From: Nitrospirota bacterium
GTDB taxonomy: Bacteria; Nitrospirota; UBA9217
Assembly (NCBI GenBank): GCA_963663225.1
Contig: OY760142.1
Coordinates: 1,504,001-1,568,000 of the forward strand
DNA length: 64,000 nucleotides
Direction: 5' to 3'
Shown here piece after piece: positions 43,006-49,012 of the stretch. The position numbers and the translations under genes were made by a program. The notes under the pieces were generated by a model that saw only the letters and a list, made by a program, of their open reading frames with translations, was not told the origin of the DNA and made no database searches. Numbering within the stretch: position 1 is the first letter of the stretch; each line of letters opens with the position of its first letter.

Positions 43006-44361
43006 ATGAACAGCACGAACCTGAAGAAAATACTCATTGCCTGCATTATTTGTTCAGTATCCATCCTGGCACTGCCTGCTTATGCGGAAGATGAACCTCT
43101 TGCGTACTCCCTGTCCTTCACGGACGCAGAACTGGATGACCTGCTTGCGCCTATCGCGCTCTATCCCGATCCCTTGCTGGCGCAGATGCTGCCTGCTTCC
43201 ACGTATCCAACAGAAATAATTGACGCGGATGAATGGCTTCGAAGCGGAGGCACGGTGGCAGGTATTGACGGCCAGAACTGGGACGAATCCGTCAAGGCAA
43301 TTGCCCACTATCCCGACGTCCTGAGGATGATGGCCGACAATATGGACTGGACCGCCAATCTGGGCGATGCTTTTTTGAACCAACCTGAGGATGTGTCAAG
43401 ATCAATCCAGCATCTGAGGCGGCAGGCAAGAGACATGGGCAACCTGTCCAGTAATGATAAACAGAGTGTGGACATTCTTGAAGAAGGCAACATCGAAATC
43501 ATTCCTGCTCAGCCGCAGTATGTGTATGTCCCGGTGTATGATCCTACCGTCGTGTATTTCAGGCGGCCGTCGCTGAGCATTCCGCCATTTATACTCTTCG
43601 GTCCTCCATTTCTCCTCGGCGGATGGCTCATCATGGATTTTAACTGGGGGCACCATGAGGTGATTTATCATGGCTGGAACCGTCCCGGCTGGGTCAATCA
43701 TGCAAGACCGTATGTACACGTGACGAATGTATATGTTAACAGAAGCAGGCCCGCCATTCAGCAGCGATGGAGGCATGATGCATCTCACGGCGACCCTGCA
43801 AAATATCTTATGACGCGGCCCAGTGGTCCGAAAGCAGACAGCTACTCCCGTATCGGCGAAGTCAGGGGAAAAGCCGTTGTTACACAACCCAAACCGGCCG
43901 GAAGGCTGTTCGATTCCAAGTCCGGTGTTCACACATATAGTAATCGCGGCAGGGAGAGCCGCGGCATAGTGCAGCAGCAAACGTCTCCATCGGCAATGCC
44001 CGGCACCAGTCCGCGAAGGACCATTCCGACGCCCCGCGTGAACGAGCGACCGACGGCACCTGCTCCCGCAGTTAGTCAACCGGTCCAGAAACCTGCTCAG
44101 CAGAGACCGGCAGGAATCAGCAGTGATAAAAAAATGACGAGCGGCACCGGACCTGCTCGTGAGGCACCACAAACCATAAAGCGGCCTTCGACCGCTTTCG
44201 GAGGTTACCGCGGTGCAGACGAGGCCAGAGCACAGAGTATGCGCGGCCAGACCAGCCGTCAGAGCAGCGCAGGCGGTGCTTCATCTACCGTCCACCCGCC
44301 AAATCGGGGCGGCAATCCTCCCGCAGGCGGGCATTCATCGGGAGAAAAGCAACGTCGATAA
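43006..44361 (+). CDS. DUF3300 domain protein
   Basis: LAPIALYPDPLLAQML, WDESVKA, YVPVYDP; low-complexity tail. Confidence 0.88.
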   Translation: MNSTNLKKILIACIICSVSILALPAYAEDEPLAYSLSFTDAELDDLLAPIALYPDPLLAQMLPASTYPTEIIDADEWLRSGGTVAGIDGQNWDESVKAIAHYPDVLRMMADNMDWTANLGDAFLNQPEDVSRSIQHLRRQARDMGNLSSNDKQSVDILEEGNIEIIPAQPQYVYVPVYDPTVVYFRRPSLSIPPFILFGPPFLLGGWLIMDFNWGHHEVIYHGWNRPGWVNHARPYVHVTNVYVNRSRPAIQQRWRHDASHGDPAKYLMTRPSGPKADSYSRIGEVRGKAVVTQPKPAGRLFDSKSGVHTYSNRGRESRGIVQQQTSPSAMPGTSPRRTIPTPRVNERPTAPAPAVSQPVQKPAQQRPAGISSDKKMTSGTGPAREAPQTIKRPSTAFGGYRGADEARAQSMRGQTSRQSSAGGASSTVHPPNRGGNPPAGGHSSGEKQRR

Positions 44362-44413
44362 GAAATGTGAACGTTGGTAAAAGGATATTTTTTGCAGAGA
44401 AAGGAAGCATATT

Positions 44414-45382
44414 ATGGCGACAAAGACCGGCAAGAAAACATTCCAGAATACTGCGCACGCGGTTGCTTTATTTATAATATGTGCGGCAATAATCACGATC
44501 GGGAGCATGTCGGTTACAGCGCAACCAACGCAGCAGGTATTCTCGTCTCCGGAGGATGCATTGAAAGAATTGGCAGCGGCAGTTAAAACGAAAGACAAAA
44601 CCGCGCTTGCCCGCATATTCGGGCCGTCCGGAGAAGAACTGCGCGCTACTGACGCGGTGCAGGCTGCCGCTGAATTCGAAGAATTTTCGAAATTATTGAC
44701 GATGAAGGCAAGCTTGGTTAAAGAGAATGAGTCGAAAGTGGTCCTTTATATAGGAAATGAAAACTGGCCGTTTCCAATCCCGCTGATTAAAACGAACAAT
44801 CAGTGGGTTTTTGATACAGAAGCAGGGAAAGAAGAAATTTTGAACCGCAGAATTGGCGAGAACGAGCTGACGGCCATCCTGGTTTGCCGTTCCTATGTAA
44901 AAGCCCAGCGTGAGTACGTACTGAAAGACTGGGATGGTGATGGAATTTTGGCGTACGCACAGAAGCTCCGGAGCGATCCGAACAAAAAGAACGGCCTCTT
45001 CTGGAAACGGGTTCCGGGCGAACCGGTAAGCCCTCTTGGTGAACTCGTGGCGCAGGCCCGGATGGAGGGATACCGGAAGGAAAAGTCGTTATTTAAAGAA
45101 GAGCCGGTGCCTTTTCACGGCTATTACTTTAACATCCTCACGAAACAGGGCAAACGCGCACCGGGAGGGAAATATAGTTACATTGTAAATGGAAATATGG
45201 TCGGGGGATTTGCTCTTGTTGCCTTTCCGGCGGACTGGGGCAAATCGGGAGTAATGACTTTTATTGTGAATCAACAAGGCAAGGTGTACCAGAAAAATCT
45301 CGGAGAAGAAACTCTGAAGATGGCCTCGAAAATGAAGATATACGATCCTGACGAGACATGGGCACTCGTTAAGGGCCAATAA
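44414..45382 (+). CDS. DUF2950 domain protein
   Basis: WPFPIPL, RRIGENE, PFHGYYF, GVMTFIVN; usual partner of DUF3300. Confidence 0.88.
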   Translation: MATKTGKKTFQNTAHAVALFIICAAIITIGSMSVTAQPTQQVFSSPEDALKELAAAVKTKDKTALARIFGPSGEELRATDAVQAAAEFEEFSKLLTMKASLVKENESKVVLYIGNENWPFPIPLIKTNNQWVFDTEAGKEEILNRRIGENELTAILVCRSYVKAQREYVLKDWDGDGILAYAQKLRSDPNKKNGLFWKRVPGEPVSPLGELVAQARMEGYRKEKSLFKEEPVPFHGYYFNILTKQGKRAPGGKYSYIVNGNMVGGFALVAFPADWGKSGVMTFIVNQQGKVYQKNLGEETLKMASKMKIYDPDETWALVKGQ

Positions 45383-45625
45383 TTTTTTGAACTCTGTTTT
45401 GTCCGAACAGGGTTTTTCGAAATAAAGATTGGTTTAGCTGGAGTTTTCCGCAAGAAAGACCTAAAGGGGTCTGCGTTTATAAAACTACCGCAAATTCTGA
45501 ACTCGTTCAATATCAACATGCTCGAAACCTATCGCCGGTAGTTGTTCGCATCTTTTCCCTCACGTTTTCCCCCCTATTACAGCAAAGATCGTATTTACTA
45601 TTTAATTTAGCGGTTTAGAATATTA

Positions 45626-45654
45626 TTGACATTATAATTTCCCTTTGCTACCTT
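45626..45654 (+). promoter_or_regulatory. Sigma-70 promoter of the cytochrome-rhodanese unit
   Basis: TTGACA-N17-TACCTT with TG extension. Confidence 0.55.
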
Positions 45655-45826
45655 ATACCTAAGCAGTATGTGCGCTTGACGCACATACAAAACTAAACAG
45701 CTCTTATTAATTCAAAATCCAACGTCAATTTAAGAATAAAACTCATACTGCCAATTGATTAAAAAGTTCCGAGCTTCTTTGACAGGTGGCCTTTAAGAAG
45801 CTACAATTTCCCCTAAAGGAGGTATT

Positions 45827-47083
45827 ATGAGGAAAATCGTCATATGCGCCAGCCTGCTGTTCGTAATCCTTCTTGCGTATTCTGCTTCCCCTGCCTACTC
45901 AAAGTCAAGCCAGCCCCAAATTAACGCTTGTGTTGCGTGTCATACCAGCGACCAAACCTTAAAGAAGCTGTTCATACCCCCCAAGGTCCAGGCCTCGGAA
46001 GGAGAAGGGTGAGCAGGGGTGCCACCGTCAGTTCCGGCGGAACTGATGTACAAGGCGTTCCTGGTTGACAAGGATTTGCTTGATCAGGACGCGCATTTTT
46101 CAGAAGGTTGCAGCCCGTGCCACAAAGGCAATGAAAAAGGAAAAGGCAAGGAAGGGGCACACCGCGGCATGGTAAAACGGCCGTCAGATAATCTTGCTGT
46201 CTGCGGAAAATGCCATGAGGATACTTCGCAGCATTACAAAACAGCTCTTCACTATACCTCAGCAGGCCAGATGCATGGAGTCAAGGCGAGATTCAATGAG
46301 AAGGAATTCAAAGCATTTGATCAGAAAGTCTTTGGAAAATCCTGCAGGAGCTGCCATGCATCCTGCGGAGATTGCCATGTAAAATCTCCATCCATAGGAG
46401 GCATCGGAACAGGATTTATCAAGGGGCACCAGTTCGTAAAACGTGATGAAGGAAAAACATGCGGTATCTGCCACGGAGGCAGAGTGTATCCGGAATACAC
46501 CGGCGACTATGGCGGCTCAGCAGACGTCCATTACCAGAAAGGAATGCTCTGTCTGGACTGCCATAAAAAATCGGAACTGCATGGCAATGGTACGGCTTAT
46601 CAAGGAAGAAAGGAAGTCCAGGGACGGCCTGCCTGCGTTCAATGCCATCCCCGGGGCAGTGAAAAAACGGACACCTCGAAGACCGCCCATGTCCAGCATG
46701 GAGACAAGGTGAGTTGCTATGCGTGCCATTCAGGGGGAACCTACAGAAACTGCTACGACTGCCACCTTGGGAAGGGTGCATCATCAAAACCCGGCTTTAT
46801 CCTGGGAATAGATCCACAGAATAAAAAAACCGTTACTACCCTGAGACTGATACCAACCGTACGGGACACATTCAAACCGGCAGGAATTTCTATGGCAGGT
46901 TTTGATGCGCTCCCGAACTACTGGGGCACGTCGCCTCACAATATCAAAAAGCGCACCGAACGCACCCGGTCGTGTGACGTGTGCCATCAGGAGCACAAGG
47001 ATTTTCTGACAAAAGAAGGATTGATACCAAACGGTTCCAAGGCGAATGAAGGCCTAATTTATGACTTTAAACTCAATAAATAA
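45827..47083 (+). CDS. Exported 11-heme c-type cytochrome with predicted selenocysteine (UGA 46010-46012, codon 62), 418 aa
   Basis: Two same-frame ORFs joined by one TGA; signal peptide + CVACH before it, 10 CxxCH after; SECIS-like hairpin follows. Confidence 0.82.
46013..46047 (+). promoter_or_regulatory. Bacterial SECIS-like element
   Basis: GTCAGTTCC-GGC-GGAACTGAT stem-loop; apical G 23 nt after the UGA. Confidence 0.72.
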
Positions 47084-47096
47084 AAGGAGGATGCTT

Positions 47097-47993
47097 ATGA
47101 TCAGGAAACGTATGCTGCAAATGCTGGTGTTGGTTCTTATTGTGATGCTGGTGCCCGTGGTGGCGGCAGCACGGGATGCCGCCCCGATTGTATCAACAGA
47201 CTGGCTCGAAAAGAACCTGAAAAACAACAATGTGGTGATTATCGATATTCGGAAGGTGGAAGAATACAAGGCAGGCCACATTCCCGGAGCGGTTAATGCG
47301 GTCTATGGAACATGGGCGATTATGAAGGGTGGCCTGAGAAATGAGCTGCCCGCAGCAGATGACTTGTTTGATGCAATTGGTGCCGCAGGTATTGAGCCGA
47401 CATCAAGCGTGGTTGTCGTAGGGAATGTTGAAACAACACCCGATCGCACCGATGTTACGAGAGTTGCTTGGACACTCAAGTACGCAGGCATTGAAAATGT
47501 TGCACTGCTCGATGGTGGTTATAAAAAATGGTTGGCGGATAAAAAGACGATATCTACCGACGTGGTGAAAGCAAAAACAAAAACATACAAAGGAAAAATC
47601 AATGCCAATCTTTTTACGAACAAAGACTATGTGTTAAGCCAACTTGGTAAGGCAACAATTGTCGATGTCAGGGAAAAAGATTTTTACGAGGGCAAGAAAA
47701 AATTCGATTTTGTAGCTAAAGCAGGAAGAGTCCCCGGCGCAAAGAATTTGCCCACCTCACTTCCTTATACAAAAGAGGGGACATTCAAGGACAAAGCAGA
47801 ACTTACTGCGATTGCGGCGAATGTTGTGGGAACCGATGTATCAAAAGAAATAATCACCTATTGTGATACAGGCAAAGTATGTTCAGCCTGGACATTCTTG
47901 CTGTCTGAAGTCCTTGGATACAAGAATGTAAAGGATTACGACGGTTCTATGGAAGAATGGACAAAAGATCCTAAGGCTCCGTTCGAACCGTAA
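47097..47993 (+). CDS. Exported tandem-domain rhodanese/sulfurtransferase
   Basis: Signal peptide, VSTDWL, GHIPGA, LLDGG, GRVPGA, active-site YCDTG, YDGSMEEW; AGGAGG RBS. Confidence 0.92.
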   Translation: MIRKRMLQMLVLVLIVMLVPVVAAARDAAPIVSTDWLEKNLKNNNVVIIDIRKVEEYKAGHIPGAVNAVYGTWAIMKGGLRNELPAADDLFDAIGAAGIEPTSSVVVVGNVETTPDRTDVTRVAWTLKYAGIENVALLDGGYKKWLADKKTISTDVVKAKTKTYKGKINANLFTNKDYVLSQLGKATIVDVREKDFYEGKKKFDFVAKAGRVPGAKNLPTSLPYTKEGTFKDKAELTAIAANVVGTDVSKEIITYCDTGKVCSAWTFLLSEVLGYKNVKDYDGSMEEWTKDPKAPFEP

Positions 47994-48004
47994 GCAGTCT
48001 TACG

Positions 48005-48038
48005 AAAACGGGCAGAATTTTTCTGCCCGTTTTTTTAT
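48005..48038 (+). terminator. Rho-independent terminator
   Basis: AAAACGGGCAGAA-TTT-TTCTGCCCGTTTTTTT. Confidence 0.85.
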
Positions 48039-48238
48039 TCCACCTGCGCTTAGTCCTCAGCGCCATCCTTCTCCGTGTCTTTTGCCACGATGCTTTCCAG
48101 CCCCAAAATACGCCTTTTATAGCCGAAACAGGTATTGCACAAGAAAAATTAAAGTATTAAATACCCATTTCGGGCGATTTACTTTCACGGAAGACTATGG
48201 TATGTCATCTGTTAACGATATTGAAGAGGGCATACGAG

Positions 48239-49012
48239 ATGAAAAATGATGGTGAATTTACGCAAGACGGTACCGAACAAAGAAAACATACCCTGCTAAT
48301 TCTCGACAGAGAGCCGCAAGAACTTATTCGAATGTCAAAGCTCTTTGAGCGAATAGGTTATCAAACCGCTACAGCTAGGATGGGTTGCGAGGCATTCAAG
48401 ACAGTAAAGAAGATAATTCCAAACCTGATTCTTACTGCGATGGACCTTGAAGATATGAGTGGAATTGCATTCATTAGTCAGCTCAGCCAAAACAGAAAAA
48501 CAGAACATATTCCAATCGTTGTTTTGAAAGGTCCCCAGGATCTTGCCAGGGAACAAGATTATCTTGGCGCTGGCGCAGCGGTTTGCCTGTGTAAGTCGTC
48601 TTCGATCGAAACGATGTATCAAACAATGCAGAGACTCCAGAAGAAAGAATTGCGGGAAAAAATCCGCATTCAAACGCATCACCCTGTTAAGATTGAGACT
48701 GCCCCGTTCTGCGATCATTATGGCATGCACACACTGACGTTATCGGAACGGGGGATGTTTCTTTTCAGCAGGGTGCATGCCCCTGAAAATACCAGGCTTG
48801 CGCTCCGTATTAATCTACAAGGACTTATCATTGCGGCCGAAGCCAGGGTTTTGTACAATGGCCGGTCACGACGTAGTTCTCATCAGGAGCCCGGGTTAGG
48901 GCTTGAATTTATTACTATTGGACCTCAAGACCGGGAATGCATACGGACATTCATAAACAATGAAATAATGAAAGACATTCAGCCGAAAATTAGCCTGCAG
49001 CTATCTGCTTGA
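48239..49012 (+). CDS. Atypical receiver + PilZ domain protein (paralog 4)
   Basis: REKIR, TLSERG, EPGLGLEF; clearly similar to the 5682-8147 paralogs. Confidence 0.8.
   Translation: MKNDGEFTQDGTEQRKHTLLILDREPQELIRMSKLFERIGYQTATARMGCEAFKTVKKIIPNLILTAMDLEDMSGIAFISQLSQNRKTEHIPIVVLKGPQDLAREQDYLGAGAAVCLCKSSSIETMYQTMQRLQKKELREKIRIQTHHPVKIETAPFCDHYGMHTLTLSERGMFLFSRVHAPENTRLALRINLQGLIIAAEARVLYNGRSRRSSHQEPGLGLEFITIGPQDRECIRTFINNEIMKDIQPKISLQLSA

Follow-up and report, generated by a model that had tools for sequence, protein, structure and literature searches.

A selenocysteine-containing 11-heme cytochrome and its partner rhodanese: a two-gene module that may reduce sulfane sulfur in the periplasm

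The precedent for a selenocysteine (Sec)-containing multiheme polysulfide reductase is MccSep (ExtKL, GSU2937-2936) of Geobacter sulfurreducens, which was first described in 2026 (PMC13510729). As laid out in the article text of that source, MccSep is a tetrameric polysulfide reductase, a homotetramer, with 5 hemes, a heme-ligating Cys239, and the Sec residue U325 in a D-G-U-P loop of the C-terminal immunoglobulin (Ig)-like domain; it also reduces selenite, less well than polysulfide, and the discussion relates its Sec/heme chemistry to the reverse of that of TsdA/SoxAX (PMC13510729). The table of a 2026 review has a GenBank-annotated selenoprotein within TIGR04315, the model of the octaheme tetrathionate reductase (OTR) (PMC13188914). 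Here, we analyzed a 64,000-nt stretch (the window; G000:C1:1504001-1568000) of the 3.26-Mb single-contig genome of a Nitrospirota bacterium, in which a gene for an exported 11-heme c-type cytochrome with one Sec is followed by a gene for an exported tandem rhodanese. We consider it rather probable, if far from certain, that this pair is a self-contained periplasmic and molybdenum-free reductase of sulfane sulfur. The features that carry the argument are (window positions):

45827..47083, + strand: gene of the exported 11-heme c-type cytochrome selenoprotein, 418 amino acids (aa); ATG at 45827, stop codon TAA 47081-47083 included
46010..46012, + strand: in-frame TGA, UGA taken as selenocysteine (U62) in the loop EGEG-U-AG; TGA kept in 69 of 72 loci
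46024..46048, + strand: hairpin of the selenocysteine insertion sequence (SECIS) type; family consensus stem at nt 15-20/27-32 from the U of the UGA
47097..47993, + strand: gene of the exported tandem rhodanese, 298 aa; ATG at 47097, stop codon TAA 47991-47993 included
47862..47864, + strand: codon of the catalytic Cys256 in the loop CDTGKV, placed by alignment of the partner rhodaneses

In the list of open reading frames (ORFs), the cytochrome gene appears as a 61-aa ORF (45827-46012) and a 354-aa ORF (46019-47083) in one frame, split by the TGA at 46010-46012. With this TGA read as U, a single protein of 418 residues with an N-terminal signal peptide and 11 CXXCH motifs is obtained, and U62 lies between heme motifs 1 and 2 in the context EGEG-U-AGVPP. 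That the TGA is a selenocysteine codon, as the preliminary description of this locus had proposed, is very well supported by comparative evidence. The machinery for Sec synthesis and insertion is complete in the genome: SelA (597 bits), SelB (375.9 bits), and SelD (372 bits) all score above their cut-offs, the SelA gene adjoins the SelB gene, and a tRNA-Sec with the anticodon tca is present. A scan of one genome per species returned at least 128 relatives, of which the best 80 were kept; 72 full-length-type loci (L032-L103) were analyzed, and L104-L111 were dropped as partial matches with 22-26% identity. At the aligned site, TGA is found in 69 of these 72 homologous loci, all from different species, and the remaining three have Cys (L100, GGGCGG), Pro (L075), or a lost Sec loop (L098). 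In a sample of the phylum, 15 of 401 genomes match the cytochrome at E <= 1e-10; six of the matches are near full length, each with exactly one in-frame TGA (and, in one of them, an additional TAA), and the other nine are partial, covering about 180 residues with no stop. Cys occupies the Sec column in 17 library representatives, mostly as G-C-G-G.

Downstream of the UGA, three clade-specific hairpins were found that are mutually unrelated in sequence, each starting 12-14 nt after the UGA. Their apical loops present a GU at nt 22-23 from the U of the UGA (21-22 in clade C), a position that we take to match approximately the essential G23/U24 of the Escherichia coli fdhF SECIS. At each of the 6 stem pairs of the clade A hairpin, 40 to 45 of the 45 unique sequences form a standard pair. 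In the window, a longer alternative stem of 10 bp (nt 17-39) is the minimum free energy structure (−29.2 kcal/mol, z −2.9), and no Rfam family matches this SECIS-type hairpin. A conserved UGA, a SECIS-type hairpin, Sec machinery, and Cys homologues, the general hallmarks of bacterial selenoproteins, are all present. The TGA could instead be a true stop, in which case a split or decaying gene would yield a peptide of 61 aa with one heme and, separately, a protein of 354 aa with ten hemes; gene callers do treat it as a stop, since 113 of the 120 best database relatives start after it. However, the 354-aa piece has no signal peptide and would therefore be unable to receive heme; moreover, 69 of 72 species keep the TGA in frame and have a hairpin at a constant distance from it, some homologues carry Cys instead, and the Sec machinery is complete. 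A genuine stop was rejected on these grounds and is practically excluded. As side observations on the Sec machinery, the selD gene (G000:C1:522565-523479, − strand) itself carries an in-frame TGA, and a second match to the tRNA-Sec model, 144 nt long, lies beside it (G000:C1:522308-522451, − strand; 48.9 bits, just above the gathering score).

The cut at the UGA is also the reason why the module is hidden in public annotation: the database entries lack the catalytic residue, the first heme, and the signal peptide. Database relatives of the cytochrome number 578 at E <= 1e-20; of the best 120, the records of 113 start right behind the TGA and bear the names "hypothetical protein" or "cytochrome c3 family protein." In two others, the TGA was read as Trp, giving a W at the Sec site, and in five, Sec is replaced by R, Y, S, A, or A. 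A protein library contains 210 clusters that match the cytochrome at E <= 1e-30, and in the one-genome-per-species collection the family extends over at least about 70 species. Pfam recognizes generic multiheme families alone (Cytochrome_C7, E 2.2e-14), and no model of NCBIfam release 20 matches the family, the best being ExtN, ExtO, and ExtM with 36-38 bits against cut-offs of 200-800. By these comparisons, the pair is widespread but misannotated. In the literature searched, no 11-heme Sec cytochrome with a partner rhodanese is described (the search covered the article text of PMC13510729 and not its supplementary lists of 637 homologues): the relevant portions of PMC3543383, PMC12545173, and PMC13490349 do not describe such a pair, and the selenoprotein table of PMC13188914 has ExtKL, the GSU2204 family, and the TIGR04315 selenoprotein, and no entry in it matches the 11-heme family.

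The Sec context across the family is G-U-[AG]-G, with three clades that differ in the loop: EGEG-U-AGxPP in clade A, to which the window loop corresponds, AIAG-U-GVSAPQVRGRD in clade B, and SGxG-U-GGxVAPLEP in clade C. The carriers are anaerobes from sulfur-cycling lineages, and many are syntrophs (Syntrophus, Smithella, Syntrophorhabdaceae); Geobacter sp. OR-1 is an example of a cultured carrier. In one clade B locus (L085, identical with L021, G397:C160), a TAA at about 1064-1066 falls within heme motif 3 (C-R-stop-C-H), where a relative has C-K-E-C-H; both downstream rhodanese genes are intact, and the TAA is possibly due to a pseudogene or an assembly error.

The second gene of the pair encodes a protein with a cleavable signal peptide ending in AAA/RD and two stretches that match Pfam Rhodanese (PF00581, E 5.9e-36). 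It has the two domains of a tandem-domain rhodanese, with the catalytic Cys in the C-terminal one; the six-residue catalytic loop C256-D-T-G-K-V is part of Y-C256-DTGKV-C262, and Cys256 is invariant in an alignment of 60 partner rhodaneses. The second Cys to which the preliminary description had drawn attention is present here as Cys262, but this position varies within the family (C, A, S, or N), and Cys262 was for this reason rejected as a conserved resolving Cys. Toward the model of 3-mercaptopyruvate sulfurtransferase (NF008557), the rhodanese reaches 95.1 bits with a cut-off of 250, and toward that of ExtH (NF040901), it reaches 69.3 bits with a cut-off of 200.

A survey of gene neighborhoods, suggested earlier as a check of the co-occurrence of cytochrome and rhodanese among homologues, gave a clear answer. 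The presence of a rhodanese can be assessed in 66 of the 72 loci (L066, L068, L075, L094, L095, and L096 end less than 200 nt past the cytochrome stop), and 65 of these 66 have a rhodanese either as the next gene downstream on the same strand or fused to the cytochrome; natural fusions are found in four loci (L079, L086, L097, L099). For L100, L101, and L103, the rhodanese was established by Pfam because the tblastn query missed it. The sole assessable locus without a rhodanese, L098, is also the sole locus with a deleted Sec loop, and its cytochrome has a MetA-pathway outer-membrane protein as its neighbor. Furthermore, each cytochrome clade has its own type of rhodanese loop. Judged by this genomic coupling, the rhodanese is an obligate partner of the cytochrome, and the recurrence of the same gene pair in other species excludes a chance arrangement. 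Two tandem rhodanese genes are present in 14 clade B loci; the second rhodanese in clade B loci (L080-L093, L102) has Ser for the catalytic Cys (Y-S-N-x-G) and is, by its sequence, presumably a noncatalytic paralogue.

Other neighbors are a hybrid sensor kinase (11 loci), a multiheme cytochrome of 873 aa (7 loci), and cytochrome-maturation genes (4-5 loci), but beyond the rhodanese no neighbor is conserved family-wide, and therefore, the cytochrome and rhodanese genes are the unit. A conserved adjacent quinol oxidase or porin was considered and rejected, being absent in the window and in most loci, in keeping with the earlier remark that no porin or quinol-oxidizing genes adjoin the pair. In L057, L059, L061, L065, L067, and L070, all of clade A, the operon takes a longer form in which the pair is followed, at about 1-4 kb, by the 873-aa multiheme cytochrome and another rhodanese; this form is absent from the window. 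In L075 (2360-4677), the Pro-for-Sec variant lies 3' of a 13-heme cytochrome and a cytochrome b561-type membrane protein; the latter may be a quinol-linked donor.

Inspection of the cytochrome in an alignment of 66 sequences revealed that all 11 heme motifs are kept, heme 11 nearly invariant and the others invariant. Only nine His residues outside the motifs are conserved (H90, 112, 142, 201, 235, 252, 288, 291, and 371), and because these nine have to serve 11 hemes, at least one heme is probably without His as its sixth ligand. Met240 is nearly invariant, and no Cys outside the motifs is conserved. An AlphaFold2 model of the cytochrome (mean predicted local distance difference test [pLDDT] score of 82.5) has OTR of Shewanella oneidensis (1sp3_A) as its top structural match, with a Z of 10.9 and a root mean square deviation of 4.0 Å over 266 residues, covering model residues 87-418; the next match has a Z of only 4.8. 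Foldseek also ranks 1sp3_A first (E 0.036, weak alone), and sequence and profile searches of the PDB returned generic multiheme matches only and did not retrieve 1sp3. The predicted fold of the cytochrome thus resembles that of OTR. Membership in the OTR family was nevertheless rejected despite this likeness, the OTR model TIGR04315 (cut-off of 375 bits) having no match in the genome at E <= 0.01.

The isolated match to OTR (Z 10.9; Foldseek rank 1, E 0.036) and the two hemes without a conserved distal His might be taken to mean that the cytochrome is an OTR-like reductase of small anions (tetrathionate, nitrite, or hydroxylamine) that acts on the free substrate at a heme, with the rhodanese as an accessory for sulfane-sulfur scavenging or detoxification or for the repair of over-oxidized Sec. 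We give this explanation a small chance. A common fold proves no function, TIGR04315 finds nothing in the genome, and the two proteins are more likely direct partners, in view of the gene fusions and of L098, which has lost the Sec loop together with the rhodanese.

A further hint to the active site comes from the segment after heme 6, H216-G-G-R219-V-Y-P-E. The motif GGR[VI]YPE is kept in 110 of the 113 relatives that start after the TGA (among the 120 best database relatives), and none of the five relatives with R, Y, S, A, or A for Sec keeps GGRVYPE whole; their counterparts are GGRVYSE, GGGVYAE, EGRVYQE, GDRVYPE, and SRSVYPE. These five full-length relatives (P0009, P0045, P0053, P0065, and P0084, with Arg, Tyr, Ser, Ala, and Ala for Sec, respectively, and a damaged GGRVYPE in each) look, from their sequences, like either decaying copies or electron carriers that gave up catalysis. 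Arg219 was surveyed in the best 150 library representatives plus one, and a further 118 rows were uninformative on the Sec site. All 28 proteins that start after the TGA have Arg219, as do both W forms, 11 of 17 Cys forms, and 6 of 22 forms with other residues. This pattern suggests that the Sec loop and Arg219 act jointly beside heme 6, a role comparable to that of R83 in MccSep.

In our model, the rhodanese would take up sulfane sulfur as a persulfide on Cys256, either from polysulfide or elemental sulfur (S0) or from thiosulfate with release of sulfite, and would present this persulfide to the cytochrome. The selenolate of Sec62, which would sit in the flexible G-U-[AG]-G loop between heme motifs 1 and 2, would attack the persulfide beside the segment after heme 6 to form a selenosulfide, and Arg219 of that segment would bind the anionic substrate. 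Electrons delivered through the heme chain, presumably from the periplasmic or quinol-linked cytochrome pool, would then release sulfide and regenerate Sec. Polysulfide or S0 is the likeliest sulfur source, and thiosulfate is a plausible alternative. The setting is in line with the model, since DsrA is encoded in the genome and the carriers belong to sulfur-cycling lineages of anaerobes. In a bolder version of the model, the pair would represent a new kind of protein-persulfide reductase, in which the persulfide on Cys256 of the partner rhodanese is the true substrate of the cytochrome. Sec62 would then act as the sixth ligand or immediate redox partner of one of the two hemes that have no conserved distal His (a His/Sec heme), and the module would be a compact, horizontally mobile, molybdenum-free means of S0 or thiosulfate respiration for fermenting syntrophs, metal reducers, and this genus of Nitrospirota; we put this version forward tentatively, as a conjecture more doubtful than not.

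The same pair might also work oxidatively or in both directions, that is, oxidize or disproportionate sulfide, polysulfide, or thiosulfate in the periplasm and pass the electrons to the cytochrome pool; Sec would form a chalcogen adduct similar to that on the Cys of TsdA/SoxAX. Clades B and C are found in Desulfobulbaceae, Desulfocapsa, "Candidatus Sulfobium," and Thermodesulfovibrionales, groups that include sulfur disproportionators and sulfide oxidizers. DsrA is encoded in the genome (552 bits), and therefore, the host handles sulfur compounds, and the Sec/heme chemistry is tied to the reverse of TsdA/SoxAX in the discussion of PMC13510729. The sequence sets no direction, but the sole characterized Sec multiheme enzyme is a reductase, and many carriers are fermenting syntrophs or metal or sulfur reducers; we therefore rate oxidative function as unlikely, yet not negligible. 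A further alternative moves the chemistry from sulfur to selenium: the pair could reduce selenium or tellurium oxyanions or serve selenium trafficking, with a perselenide on the rhodanese and the cytochrome reducing selenite, as proposed for the ext cluster of Geobacter. It can invoke the weak score of the rhodanese (69.3 bits, cut-off of 200) with the model of ExtH, a protein of the "selenite/tellurite reduction operon," the weak matches of the cytochrome to ExtM, ExtN, and ExtO, and the activity of MccSep with selenite, which is lower than that with polysulfide in the account given in PMC13510729. However, every Ext match is far below its cut-off, no ExtI-type porin is nearby, and the module occurs in at least about 70 species from ordinary anoxic habitats, in which sulfur is far more common than selenium. 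A role in selenium or tellurium metabolism is accordingly improbable.

Several observations weigh against the reduction of sulfane sulfur by the proposed route. No gene for an electron donor is adjacent to the pair in the window. Thiosulfate reduction needs very low potentials, and to our knowledge, the syntrophic carriers (Syntrophus, Smithella, Syntrophorhabdaceae) are not known as sulfur respirers. The rhodanese stays below the cut-offs of all NCBIfam equivalogs, so that the specificity for a sulfur donor is not given by its family. The Sec loop (residues 56-65, pLDDT of <50) is the least confident part of the structural model, and therefore, the placement of Sec62 relative to any heme is not given by the model. 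The link of Sec to Arg219 and GGRVYPE rests on related sequences with few non-Sec variants, 6 of the 17 Cys forms lacking Arg219; since the surveyed sequences are related, the association is a lead and not a test. Finally, the clade A hairpin shows little covariation, mostly changes from C-G to U-G, along with two from C-G to U-A.

The cytochrome and rhodanese genes are confirmed, at the sequence level, as a genuine two-gene operon with all elements present, much as the preliminary description had drawn it: the cytochrome gene, the 13-bp gap with AGGAGG, the exported tandem rhodanese with YCDTGKVC, a promoter-like site, and a strong terminator are all found in the sequence. The control elements of the operon are:

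45626..45654, + strand: promoter-like site P1, TTGACA-17-TACCTT; read from the sequence, in a block conserved in the genus (L032, L033); putative function
45779..45807, + strand: promoter-like site P2, TTGACA-17-TACAAT; 11 of 12 consensus matches, 20 nt 5' of the ATG
45815..45822, + strand: ribosome binding site (RBS) AAAGGAGG of the cytochrome gene; read from the sequence, conserved within the genus
47084..47090, + strand: RBS AAGGAGG, opening the 13-nt intergenic gap 47084-47096; read from the sequence
48004..48040, + strand: intrinsic terminator, a 14-bp hairpin followed by a U-run; by folding, −20.3 kcal/mol, z −6.4

The promoter was the one element of this picture that had to be revised. 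The TTGACA at 45626-45631 on which it had been based is present, but P1 is not among the sites returned by a promoter consensus scan, P2 fits the consensus better, and the region is not enriched in promoter-like sites (6, compared to 4.2 ± 2.3 in shuffles). The hexamers of P1 and P2 are kept in both other genomes of the genus that bear the operon, and the spacer of P2 differs in L033. A perfect 9-nt inverted repeat (GTATGTGCG ... CGCACATAC) lies between P1 and P2 at 45665-45690; it is partly kept in L032 but not in L033 and may be an operator. For the rhodanese, an in-frame start at the ATG at 47091 is also possible. The terminator was not picked up by a consensus terminator scan but by folding, and none of 200 shuffles gave an equally good hairpin; an Rfam scan of 45300-48200 returned nothing close to any gathering score. 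According to Pfam, the genes flanking the operon are unrelated to the module. Upstream (43006-45382) lie a secreted DUF3300 protein and a DUF2950 protein, a recurrent pair that other species do not have within the module; downstream are a response-regulator receiver fused to a PilZ domain (48197-49012, directly 3' of the terminator), an unknown lipoprotein-like ORF, and DUF6982.

The operon was probably gained by horizontal transfer, as judged from its distribution and phylogeny. It is present in only 2 of 5 other genomes of the genus, other Nitrospirota have clade B or C cytochromes with about 30-35% identity, and the window cytochrome is 57-68% identical to sequences of Syntrophorhabdaceae and Syntrophales; among the matches listed, the closest public relatives of the window are metagenome-assembled genomes labeled uncultured Nitrospiraceae. 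In a quick maximum-likelihood tree of 66 rows (L032, L042, L068, L073, L081, L085, and L094 were left out), the window sequence and L033 nest in a Syntrophorhabdaceae-rich subclade (Shimodaira-Hasegawa-like approximate likelihood ratio test [SH-aLRT], 94), and this nesting makes horizontal acquisition likely. The GC content is unremarkable.

How does the module compare with known systems? In Wolinella succinogenes, the periplasmic, rhodanese-like polysulfide-sulfur transferase Sud feeds the polysulfide reductase PsrABC. Compared by function, our model is alike in that a periplasmic Cys carrier of the rhodanese type would hand sulfane sulfur to a respiratory reductase. However, the reductase of W. 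succinogenes is a membrane-bound molybdopterin enzyme and not a Sec multiheme cytochrome, and Sud is a single-domain dimer, whereas the partner here is a tandem rhodanese. OTR of S. oneidensis (1sp3), the isolated best structural match, is likewise a periplasmic catalytic multiheme cytochrome and an enzyme of sulfur compounds; it has an unusual Lys-ligated active-site heme. It differs from the cytochrome described here in having 8 hemes instead of 11, and it has neither the extra N-terminal heme with the Sec loop nor the obligate rhodanese partner. The OTR literature searched, including the portions of PMC8840924 consulted, offered no detail of the OTR active site. With TsdA and SoxAX, as they are discussed in PMC13510729, the cytochrome would share a chalcogen nucleophile beside or on a c-type heme and the chemistry of S-S bonds, but those enzymes are dihemes that use Cys and not Sec, work oxidatively, and are without a rhodanese partner gene.

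MccSep is the closest parallel. Both proteins are multiheme c-type cytochromes of the periplasm that contain a single Sec, and in both genes the in-frame UGA for this residue precedes a hairpin. Gene callers split either gene in two, and each cytochrome is associated with a protein of the rhodanese family, which in the ext cluster, as described in PMC13510729, is the rhodanese-like lipoprotein ExtH. The reduction of sulfur or selenium proposed here would be a further common trait, as would an Arg near Sec that binds anions (R83 in MccSep; Arg219 as the candidate here). The link to ExtH and ExtKL drawn in the preliminary description therefore survives as an analogy but not as homology. The ExtKL/MccSep model NF040886 (cut-off of 250 bits) has no match in the genome at E <= 0.01, the cytochrome included, and no homology is detectable; there are 11 hemes compared to 5, Sec is residue 62 in an N-terminal G-U-A-G loop before heme 2 and not residue 325 in a C-terminal Ig-like domain, and a conserved heme-ligating Cys is missing from the 11-heme cytochrome. 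Membership in the ExtKL/MccSep family was rejected on these grounds. ExtH is, furthermore, a lipoprotein encoded several genes away, whereas the rhodanese described here is the immediate and sometimes fused partner. By these comparisons, the cytochrome family shares the ingredients of MccSep, not its ancestry or architecture. If our model is true, the module would be the second case, unrelated to the first, in which hemes, Sec, and a rhodanese are combined to this end. Its recognition would alter predictions of sulfur metabolism in syntrophic Desulfobacterota, Thermodesulfovibrionia-type Nitrospirota, Spirochaetota, and others, and, next to MccSep, it would offer a compact two-protein system for the study of persulfide transfer to a selenoenzyme.

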